Source: Eledone cirrhosa (lineage: Eukaryota). Taken from it: a stretch of DNA of 64,000 nt. Both the position numbers and the translations under genes were made by a program. The stretch spans positions 172,608,001 to 172,672,000 of the forward strand of contig OZ024742.1 in the NCBI GenBank assembly GCA_964016885.1, written 5' to 3'. The notes below the pieces were generated by a model, which saw nothing but the letters and a program-made list of their open reading frames with translations, did no database searches and was not told the DNA's origin. Below are positions 7,110-51,432 of this stretch, piece by piece (the first letter of the stretch is position 1; every line of letters begins with the position of its first letter).

Positions 7110-7521
7110 AGGAAAAAGTATGACCCCGACGGCAGAGCTCAAGCCGTTTCGACGTCTATTTCTGGACTCATATCAATTTCAACGCTTGACCGCTCCACTC
7201 ACACCCCTATTGTTCTACAGGTAAGTTCAGCCACCCCTACCTTCCACCAAATGCCATGACAGACTTATTTGTATTTACAACAAATGTTAACCAATCCTCT
7301 TGACAACTACAATCTTCCCATATAAGGAAGTAACCCCTTGACAAGTTTGGCTATTTATTCACCAGGCTAAAAATGATAATTTAGTCCAGAAATAGCCGTC
7401 GAAACGGCTTGAGCTCTGCCGTCGAGGTCATACTGTTTCCTATTTCCCACTCTACTACCCTAAGTATTGAGTACTCTGGTGCGTTATGGTCCATCTGGTT
7501 CCTTACCACAATTCCCTTGTT
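7110..7521 (+). mobile_element. family A fold-back insertion (short tail-less inverted arm plus tailed arm)
   Basis: 7110-7168 is the reverse complement of ~7383-7441; body is homologous to 40135-40400; ~80 bp tail at 7444-7521; (TA)n flanks. Confidence 0.85.
7333..7428 (+). ncRNA. type I hammerhead ribozyme, U3-A8 core variant
   Basis: ACCCC-TTGACAA-G..GGCTATTT...AAATAGCC..C-GAAA-CGGC(ttgagctct)GCCG-TC-GAGGT; sister copies read GGGGT, giving a perfect stem I. Confidence 0.7.
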
Positions 7522-9508
7522 ATATATATATATATATATATATATATATATATATATATATATATATATATATATATATATATATATATATATATATTGG
7601 AACACCTCAAGAGGTTTTTATAAGGAAGACAGAAGAGGAAAATATTTACGTAGAAATGACAAAGAATGTACCCAAAGCACATGTTGAATTTCATAAGTAG
7701 CAACATAATTGGGGCTAGATAATAAATCCCAACATACCAGGACCAAAGAATGTCTGAACCTTAGATTCAAAAGATGCTAAATCGCCAGGACAAATTAAAA
7801 TCTCTAATGCCTTAAGATTTTATAAATGAAAGATTGATCTTACAACAGGGACGTTGTCCGTTAAAAATAAAATTGAAAAGGTACCACGCTGAATTTTATA
7901 CAGGTATATACACAGTGATACACACAAACACACACGGATATATAAACAGACACGAAACCGTTTGATAATGCAAAACAATCCAATCATATAAATATTCGCA
8001 ATATTTTCACTTCCTTCATCTGTACAAAAATGTTTCTGGACATTCATCTGTGGCCAATTTTACAAATCAACTTGCGAATCCCTCGGCTTTTCACCATTGG
8101 CTTTGTTGAGGTGATCACCGCTTTAGCCGCAACTTTCTCTCACATCAAAGGATCATTTTCTCAATCTTTAATCTAGGTGCGACCAAACGGTTCAGATCTG
8201 AATATTACTATTAGCCTACCTTTTCGTCTCTATGCATCACCAACACTTTTGTTTGCGAACTCGTTTATCTGATACACTTCGGCACGCGCATATTGATTTA
8301 AGTGTCGAACATTAGAATTTATATACGACGTATTTAGTCCATGCCACGTAATTTCATTCAGGTTCTGCTGAGCTTTTGTATCGTAAAATATTCAAGGACA
8401 TATTTATTATATTGTTAGACTGTATGCTGGTATAGTACAGCAATAATGTCGACAGCATTTGGAATTATGCAGGCCCACATCGACAGCCGATGAATACGGA
8501 AATCATGTATGTCTGAGTAAAGTTGTCACACTCCCAAAGCTACCCGTTATATAACGGGTAGTATAATCAAGGGTTTATCACGAGATATTCTACATTCGCA
8601 TACTTCTTGCCAATCCAATGGTTTTGTTCCGAATGTTTTGACGTTTCTATCACCTTCGAAACTAAACAATCAAACTAGTGTGAAAGTACAAGCGATACTC
8701 ACCCGTTTTTAGTTCTGTAATTTCTTGTATAGCGATTACAATAAAATTGTTTAACAACACATTTAAATAGCAAGAAACTATTATATCACGATCAGCTTAA
8801 GAATTTGCCTTTCTTTAGAAATCGATTTCTACTATCTATAAATAACGAATACCGTTAGATATATCTATTATATATTGGTGATATTTTGTCTGTGTGTTGG
8901 CAGTTATAGGCATGTATAGTATCTTGAGTTGTAAAGGCCTTCAGCTCTCGGAAATGATGTCTGTTTGCTATAACATGAACGGAAAAATATAATTACCACA
9001 CACGCACAAACACACACACGCATGCACACAGACACACACACGCACGAAATATACAAACAAACACACACACACACATATATATATATATATATAGGTATAT
9101 ATATACTCAAATGTTTGTCTATATAGTTACATTAGATATGAAGTAAATATACTATTTAAAATTATTCATTGCAAACAGAGAATTATATGGGCCTTATAGT
9201 AGTTGCTCGGTTACTCGGTTTACAAATCTTTGTTTAAACACTGATATCAGTTTAAAAACCTCGATGAAATTAATACTATATCCACGTTACATATTTTACA
9301 ACCCGTCAGATCTTTAGATAGGCTGCATTTGCTGAGTCTGATAAGGAAGGGGGGGGGGGGGTTCTTCTGTAATGTCGCATTCATCTGGGAACATCCTAAT
9401 TTTGGGGCGTATGATAACGGAATTGAATTAGGAAACTCTGTAATAGTTGTCAATATTGGCTCTACAGACTGGCCAAGTAGGTGGTACTGTAACAAAATCA
9501 TTATTTTG

Positions 9509-9597
9509 CATTTCATCCTTACGGGGTCGATAAACTAAAGTACCAGTAATTTACTGGGTAATTGCTGGTCTTGTGCCAACAGTAGAAATAATTATTT
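9509..9597 (+). mobile_element. SINE 3' fragment
   Basis: TTTCATCCTTACGGGGTCGATAAA..GTACCAGT core shared with the 10084 and 20531 copies. Confidence 0.8.
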
Positions 9598-10083
9598 GTT
9601 GTATGACCTTTGTGAAATCTATTAAGCCTTGGTAGGTCTTTGTTCTAGGCATGGACATTATTTAGCTGTCCGTTGTTTCGGCTGCATTATACAAGACCAC
9701 CTCATCATGTGAGAAATGAGTATTCTTTTCTGTTTCCCCATGCTCCTGTTGTGTTTCTTTTGTGTTGATGATCTGGGGTCTTATTACCTGGATTTAGTTT
9801 GGTAGGCTTGTGCCTGACTTGTCTTGTGAGATACATAAAATTTCTATATTTTTGTGTGCAGCATGCGCTTACGAAAGCCATTTGCAGATTTTTAACCATG
9901 TTTATAGGCCTCCACCCTAACCTGATTCATATTATGCTGTTCAAGCTTAGTTATAGCTATTGAAAATTGAACCTCAGCCTGATCATCGATTGTGATGGAA
10001 TGCAGATTATTTTATTATGTCGGAAAAATCATACGGCTCAAGTCAAAGGATTTATGGATGGGTTCACGAATAAAGAGTTGGTA

Positions 10084-10268
10084 TTGGCAGTATTGGTAGA
10101 GGGTCGAACGCCATGCTTTGCAGCAAAGAGTTACGTCCCTTTATGGTCTGAGTTCAAATCCCGCCGAGGTTAACTTTGCCTTTCAACCTTACGGGCTCGA
10201 TAAAATAAAGCACCAGTAATACACTGGGATAATTGCTGGCCTTGTTCCAAATGTAGAAACAATTAATT
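10084..10268 (+). mobile_element. tRNA-derived SINE with Meta/MESC-like core
   Basis: A box TGGCAGTATTGG, B box GAGTTCAAATCC, core GCCTTTCA.CCTTACGGG.TCGATAAAAT, ATT-type tail. Confidence 0.88.
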
Positions 10269-10379
10269 TACATGCTGTTTGTATCAGCAGTGTTGTCTCC
10301 TTCTTAGCCAACAGTTTCATAAATATTCCTACCACTACTGCCACTGCTCCTGCTCTCCTTACGTCTCTCATTATTACAT

Positions 10380-50727: not shown

Positions 50728-50742
50728 CGTCGAAGGCCACCA
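50728..50742 (-). promoter_or_regulatory. primer binding site, tRNA-Trp-like
   Basis: TGGTGGCCTTCGACG vs canonical TGGTGACCCCGACG, immediately inside the 5' LTR. Confidence 0.6.
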
Positions 50743-50744
50743 AT

Positions 50745-51200
50745 TTAGCAGAGAGTTATGTTTAGAAGTTAGTAAGGTTGCCACGAGGAACAATCTTTGG
50801 TAGAAAGATATGATAGGAATATCGACAACGACTTTAGCTTGTTTTTACATAATTTATTAACAAAGGTTAAGAAGTGAATTAAGCTGACATGCCAAGAATA
50901 ATGAAATAATTCAATTAAGATTACAAGAGAACATACGGTCGACTGGCTGAGGCGTTTGGCCAGGCCCGTAGGAATGTTTTGTCGTTACATATTGTTTGTG
51001 CTTACGGAGCAAAAGAACAAGTGGTGTTTACCTTAGCATGGTCAAGCTGCGAGAGTCTGAGATTTCTCGAATCTTCGCGGGATAGTTCTCCCTCAGAATG
51101 CGTAGGGATACATTCTCTTCCACTGGCACTGATTGGCTGAGCTGAGCCAAATCACGCACAGAGAGAATTTATGTGAGCCCGCGGAATGTAGGTCACTACA
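50745..51200 (-). repeat. 5' LTR
   Basis: Direct repeat of 48253-48705; contains a CCAAT motif. Confidence 0.9.
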
Positions 51201-51246
51201 ATATATATATATATATATATATATATTTATATATATATATATATAT

Positions 51247-51432
51247 AGGAAAATAGTCAAGACCCCGACGGCAGAGCTCAAGCCCTTTCGACGGGTATTT
51301 CTGGTCGTTGAAACGGATTGAGCTCTGCTGTCAGGGCCTTGACTCTTTTCCTACTACCCACTCTACTACCCGAAAGTATCTAGTACTCAGGTGCGTTATG
51401 GTCCATCTGGTTCTTTACCACAGTCTCTTCGA
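51247..51432 (+). mobile_element. family A fold-back mini-insertion
   Basis: 51247-51304 tail-less inverted arm; right arm carries tail CCCACTCTACTACCC...TTACCACA. Confidence 0.85.

Follow-up and report, generated by a model that had tools for sequence, protein, structure and literature searches.

Fold-back insertions, in which two arms of one repeat family lie with their 3' ends facing outward, recur along the 64,000-nt stretch of the Eledone cirrhosa genome analysed here (the window; C3:172608001-172672000 of a 3.0-Gb assembly; GC content 33.7%, (TA)n runs ~200), and they raise the question of why only one of the two arms carries a terminal tail. We denote a tailed outward 3' end as T, and a tail-less outward 3' end that stops at an inner site as N. 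Genome-wide, 155 of 162 same-family fold-backs from 8 families (~96%) pair one T with one N arm, the others being 3 N/N and 4 T/T pairs (binomial p = 9e-38 against independent arms). The fold-backs are Penelope-like element (PLE) insertions in (TA)n, with a fixed outer site, T, bounding one arm and a fixed inner site, N, bounding the other, and we consider it probable that they are made by twin target-priming.

Within the window, fold-backs were detected by self-comparison after masking of TA runs, combined with pairwise alignment of ends. A preliminary description had listed ten of them, each with the outward ends of one family and a tail on one end; all ten are present, together with four that it had missed (5832-6015, 32406-32490, 32520-33138 and 42898-43786). 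The features are as follows, with the strand given where one was assigned:

5832-6015, family H mini fold-back; tail on the left arm (5832-5923)
7110-7520, family A fold-back (subfamily variant); N left, T right; tail 7442-7520
12459-13007, old family G fold-back; N left, T right; arms 72% alike; tail ~12980-13007; (CT)n flanks
14637-14812, old A-related fold-back; N left, tail right; arms strongly diverged
28979-32358, + strand, family C insertion; on the left a short inverted arm with the tail (28979-29034), on the right a long sense arm to the N site
29736-31851, + strand, family C reading frames; 5'-truncated, frameshifted reverse transcriptase (RT; 29736-31319) and GIY-YIG endonuclease (31258-31851)
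32406-32490, family A minimal fold-back of 85 bp; 10-bp N arm and 75-bp tail-only arm, non-overlapping
32520-33138, mixed-family fold-back; family E N end left, 92-bp family D T arm right
33159-37091, family D fold-back; T left (tail 33159-33271), N right
37116-37488, family B fold-back; N left, T right (tail 37398-37488)
37888-40400, family A fold-back; T left (tail 37888-37967), N right
42898-43786, family E fold-back; T left, N right
44282-45496, + strand, insertion of family C2 (a relative of C); tailed short arm left (tail 44282-44341), N right; GIY-YIG remnant 44717-45115
47766-48028, family F fold-back; T left (tail 47766-47806), N right
51248-51431, family A mini fold-back; N left, T right (tail 51352-51431)

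The tail had been put at 25-110 bp on one arm only, in agreement with the 27-110 extra terminal bases that we found on one arm each: ~80 bp in family A (7110, 37888, 51248), 27 in G (12459), 56 in C (28979), 59 in C2 (44282), ~110 in D (33159), 91 in B (37116) and 41-44 in F (47766). The arms of the fold-back at 14640 align weakly but significantly (left-versus-right score 63, shuffled maximum 43 in 1000 shuffles). Tail-less ends lie at the TA-like motifs named in the preliminary description and run into (TA)n as it had stated, except at 12461, which abuts (CT)n. Its assignment of the tail to the long arm in families A and B and to the short arm in C and D did not hold, as the longer arm differs insertion by insertion (T further/N further/equal: A 22/22/20, n = 64; B 6/14/9, n = 29; C 6/9/3, n = 18; D 4/6/0, n = 10).

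Judged by their coding motifs and architecture, the window fold-backs are PLE insertions. The family C frames were recognized by weak Pfam RVT_1 and GIY-YIG matches together with motifs, and because they point to the right-hand end, the outward ends of this family are 3' ends. Long copies of families A and D encode, by motifs, an RT followed by a C-terminal GIY-YIG domain, with RWR in A or RWK in D, DKT and a CNC-x5-C linker in both, and an endonuclease that has a single cysteine before YIG/YVG and lacks the CCHH cysteine pair; their insertion target is (TA)n. The marks given for the Hydra clade are RWK, DKT, a CxCX5C linker, an endonuclease with no CCHH pair and insertion almost always into (TA)n (PMC8557442). 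Families A and D thus carry Hydra-clade motifs, and family C, with a CTNRKCIIC linker ahead of GIY-YIG and C-x4-C before YIG (the Neptune-type CX2-5CxxC linker and core cysteine pair), is Neptune-like, both placements being by motifs. Families B, E, F, G and H, in which no open reading frame (ORF) was established, are placed among PLEs by architecture only. A partial-tandem pseudo-long terminal repeat (pLTR) lies upstream of the ORF in A, C and D, family E forms a tandem unit, and the PLE hallmark of an inverted 5'-truncated copy with a one-sided tail is found in these families. In the genome, these families have thousands of candidate matches.

The genome was queried with tail-free stretches of families A, B, C, D, F and G, one tailed A stretch, the A 5' region and E. 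For each search the best 40 candidates were scored and 30 loci cut out, and where an end had no partner within 1.5 kb, the stretch was lengthened to 7-10 kb (80 stretches). Additional samples comprised 20 near-full-length A insertions and four random 100-kb blocks; three blocks were kept and one was dropped, namely C5:60000001-60100000 (L091-L100), which consists of short-unit satellite over its whole 100 kb and has very long open frames. Of 177 same-family contiguous pairs found, 162 were unique, and 161 remained once one near-duplicate was set aside; with one mis-pair (L271) removed and two C2 T/T pairs dropped by a coverage filter restored, the final set again numbered 162, and the tail-anchored search contributed just 9 pairs. 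The family B query was shifted and preferentially recovers arms extending to the junction region, so the clustered inner ends of this family are biased.

Consistent with the one-tail rule proposed from the window, tail presence is not independent between arms but strongly anti-correlated. All pairs are T/N in families C (18), D (10), E (13) and F (16), and the T/N, N/N and T/T counts in the remaining families are 64/1/0 (A), 29/2/1 (B), 2/0/2 (C2) and 3/0/1 (H). Family G, counted outside the 162, gave T/N in 3/3 pairs with both ends read. De novo labelling of the random blocks yielded 13 T/N segments against one T/T and one N/N event, the latter also present as an inverted duplicate, and near-full-length A copies with both ends clearly read were T/N in 10/10 cases and in both arrangements, T being on the long arm in 6/10 and on the short arm in 4/10. 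De novo T/N counts for families J, K, L, N, P, R and S were not individually checked and are left out of the 162. Two candidate T/T pairs (L393, L404) were T/N on inspection, and apparent de novo N/N pairs in families L2, J, I and X reflected internal TA runs, not element ends; one such fold-back family with internal TA runs, I, lies in the window at 1764-2187.

These counts bear on the possibility that slippage between the internal TA mimic and the flanking (TA)n removed tails once the insertions were in place, or that the palindromes are assembly artefacts or products of whole amplification in the manner of miniature inverted-repeat transposable elements. A TA mimic beside (TA)n does offer a deletion route, and palindromes may be misassembled. 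Independent loss would, however, yield many T/T and N/N pairs, and 7/162 were seen; moreover, arms differ by 1-4% with private changes, the joints are found in raw reads, junctions vary, and there is 1 near-duplicate pair among the 162 unique sequences. This explanation, which we rated as having next to no chance, is refuted by the pair counts, the arm differences and the raw reads.

The positions at which the arms end are fixed. TA-flanked outer ends form two sharp classes in each family, so that tail-less breakpoints are not scattered, and raw reads agree: in 3/3 runs carrying the same species label, reads on the A tandem junction include thousands of (AT)n loose ends exactly at T and N, as well as opposite-strand joints, and contigs of a second organism have the same two sites. 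The T and N end classes are about equal in the assembly. The T site is itself internal to the transcription unit, as in tandem copies the sequence continues past it into the 5' untranslated region and ORF. The bases directly after T are TAT (A), TAT/TAC (C), TAA/TAT (D) and TATAT (E), and those after N are TAT (A), ATAT (C), TA (D), ATATATA (E), TATAT (B) and TATA (F). All readable start sites (10/10, in 6 families) therefore agree with the (TA)n flank over 2-7 nt (P = 1.4e-4 under a conservative null in which every position takes the better phase), and a rare third A site (L335/L378) likewise has TAT directly after it. The preliminary description had placed one start at the tail end and one at an internal TA mimic; the latter holds for N, whereas T is also internal and then followed by TA/TAT in A, C, D and E. 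Separately, the 5' truncation of two D copies (L287, L299) falls at one shared internal TA-like position, where they join (TA)n directly, suggesting microhomology at one-armed 5' junctions.

The main rival to twin priming is trimming: both arms would first be tailed, through two primings at T or through one cDNA and its second strand, and the endonuclease would trim one of them at N while resolving the intermediate. Such trimming would leave exactly one arm tailed only under an extra rule for the cut, and offers no account of the TA/TAT that follows the T site in the RNA, nor of RT starts that map in vitro to both tail boundaries (PMC11167929). We judge it unlikely.

Next, we compared the inner extents of the arms. 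In 57/137 pairs the N arm reaches >10 nt beyond the T arm, and 10 T arms end inside the tail, without overlap with the N arm; five C copies have tail-only partners of 12-18 bp. Both observations speak to a single-priming route in which the cDNA snaps back or self-primes, copies itself and halts at the point where an internal TA mimic pairs with the second end of the target, akin to the self-priming proposed for rotifer PLEs from junction palindromes (PMC3846280). Subfamily variants common to both arms, equal inner ends in 20/64 A pairs and short snap-back pieces at some 5' ends are all in keeping with this route. However, a copied arm cannot outreach its template, and a cDNA lacking the tail cannot serve as template for an arm made of tail only, which together exclude simple snap-back, that is, one cDNA copying itself. 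We regard the route as highly improbable and refuted as a general one; it could persist for a minority.

Instead, the arms end independently and stem from a shared subfamily template. Common variants are shared between arms in 223/292 cases in A (permuted 17%), 56/60 in B (permuted 18%), 17/21 in C and 16/22 in D, and private variants rarely so (A 19/394; B 0/27), indicating that both arms were copied from the same template and decayed independently, with no wholesale conversion. The junctions (BLAST-derived, n = 137) comprise 55 with an overlap of 1-6 nt, 10 that are blunt and 44 with 1-30 nt extra. In family A, one 16-nt stretch of the pLTR, ~137 nt inward of the T end, holds 52/128 arm ends and may mark where the RNA starts.

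A further alternative invokes twin priming on two separate RNAs held by an asymmetric protein complex. It draws on ~6 mixed-family joints (window 32520-33138; L330, L329, L150, L060, L036), in which the 5' ends of two PLE families stand head to head between (TA)n and of which 4/6 are T/N; these joints reflect either two ribonucleoproteins (RNPs) at one target or later deletions. It would also accommodate the 24% of common A variants that differ between arms, and does not need strand displacement. Set against these points are the strong subfamily concordance in A, B, C and D, the fact that mixed joints make up at most ~4% and may be deletions between neighbours, and the asymmetry itself, which becomes an additional assumption. 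On balance we find two RNAs very unlikely. One candidate mixed D/A joint (L299) proved to consist of a D stub next to a mini fold-back of family A.

We therefore return to twin priming on one RNA, for which we infer the following course. Nicking of both (TA)n target strands by the endonuclease would free 3'-OH ends, each of which would anneal through 2-7 nt with a UA(U) motif and serve as primer of a separate cDNA, with T and N flanking a protein-bound tail on the same RNA. Two RT active sites, in a predicted dimer, would be barred from using the same start, and hence would give T/N rather than T/T or N/N. Each cDNA would then halt at random or run off the RNA 5' end, and the two inner (5') ends would be joined by microhomology or short filler. 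The preliminary description had likewise suggested that both target strands prime and that the cDNAs join 5' to 5'; two primings fit the arm anatomy, and the joining is presumed. A cis requirement for the tail is likely, because without one N-ended master copies would give rise to N/N progeny in growing numbers. More tentatively, and at somewhat less than even odds that it will prove right, we propose that this double priming is obligately asymmetric: one RNP dimer on the tail RNA would use its two RT sites to prime both strands at the two tail boundaries through UA(U) annealing of 2-7 nt, in a telomerase-like manner. If true, the one-sided tail is the footprint of an RNP dimer, and one rule covers inverted pLTRs, tail and (TA)n targeting in at least two PLE clades.

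Several observations weigh against twin priming on one RNA. The search-derived loci are biased to young copies, and the sequence after T is readable in A, C (2 copies), D and E, but not in B, F, G, H or C2. T-type raw reads exceed N-type reads 2-3 to 1, in restriction-site libraries whose geometry is biased. Two cDNAs over the same RNA stretch require strand displacement or two pLTR copies; family F arms share 0/14 common variants; and the mixed-family joints cannot be explained by one RNA unless later deletions occurred. In addition, the purified anole PLE PAc reportedly initiates in vitro without homology to the target (PMC11167929), in contrast to the TA mimic found here after every readable start. 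The seven symmetric pairs (~4%) cannot all be dismissed as secondary, because their arms are no more alike than T/N arms, save in L299 (100%) and L228 (99%). Finally, many anchored ends have no canonical partner, or have an L1-like internal inversion, so that twin priming is not obligatory and the T/N rule is limited to fold-backs.

Around one C2 T/T pair lies an 11-kb nested palindrome with arms 99% identical (L228/L238; C3:142377198-142388716), which is either a secondary inverted duplication or an assembly artefact. In the L1-like internal inversions (L290, L292, L293, L269, L259, L230), the second arm starts in the ORF near the stop of the first arm, in some cases directly at (TA)n.

Family E is an abundant tandem unit of ~650 bp (window 32520-33038, 42898-43786; L381-L410) with its own T and N ends, in which no ORF was found. 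It holds a CTGATGA core-like string and, after T, shares the TAATAATCTCC motif with D, and it is possibly a non-autonomous partner of D; its interpretation as the 5' untranslated region of D was dropped, as 29/30 E loci are unlinked to a D ORF and D has its own pLTR. In the family C ORF, a long asparagine-rich insert precedes the RT (L264:3400-3900, L421-L425), resembling the N-rich inserts of rotifer Penelope (PMC3846280). Hammerhead core-like CTGAnGA...GAA strings occur in B, C and D as candidate pattern matches, and the pattern is absent from families A and F. Among the matches listed (150/197), an Rfam scan of the window gave no hammerhead ribozyme and just microRNA-like hairpins below the gathering score; minimum free energy folds of the tail regions yielded nothing usable.

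The window also contains a dispersed repeat of ~190 bp resembling a short interspersed element, in at least 8 copies (9505-9607, 10083-10268, 14458-14558, 20534-20737, 46086-46293, 59902-60632), and fragments of a long interspersed element (zf-RVT, endonuclease domain) at 10-952 and 60589-63618, two copies that are 85% identical.

The twin priming of L1, reportedly described by Ostertag and Kazazian in 2001, is said to involve cDNA priming by both target strands on one RNA and joining by microhomology, with the second primer at variable internal sites and arms that do not overlap. The main class of insertions described here differs in that both arms begin at fixed positions close to the 3' end and repeat one and the same sequence, whereas a minority (L290, L292, L269), like L1, has non-overlapping internal inversions.

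Among PLEs, neither the elements nor their general layout is new, and our result is a refinement of a known architecture, real, robust and informative about mechanism. The one-sided tail, the inverted copy and the (TA)n bias have been published (PMC8557442, PMC3846280, PMC2377424). In the complex insertions described in those reports (Craig et al. 2021, PMC8557442; Arkhipova et al. 2013, PMC3846280; Schostak et al. 2008, PMC2377424), the layout is optional or frequent; here it is near-strict. Published tails measure 30-40 bp, compared with ~27 to >110 bp here, longer in most families. Hydra-clade elements are given as units of <3 kb (PMC8557442), shorter than the ~3.1-3.6 kb of families A and D, which they match in RWR/RWK, DKT, the CxCX5C linker, the C-terminal GIY-YIG and (TA)n targets. 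Searches of open-access papers turned up no statement of strict T/N pairing, nor of annealing to TA at both starts, though earlier work may describe them.

The closest biochemical parallel is the anole Poseidon PLE PAc (Frangieh et al. 2024, PMC11167929), which as a purified protein nicks and extends both target strands, starts reverse transcription at two internal RNA sites, one at each tail boundary, and is predicted to form a dimer. The start is reported there as identical on both strands, unlike the different starts used by the two arms here, and inverted insertions are not modelled in the portions of that report drawn on here. The origin of the inverted ends and tails of PLEs is an open question according to PMC8557442, and PMC11167929 leaves it without validation. 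Together, the near-strict T/N rule and the TA mimic at both starts make this origin testable with an existing assay, and the T and N sites give annotators exact element boundaries.

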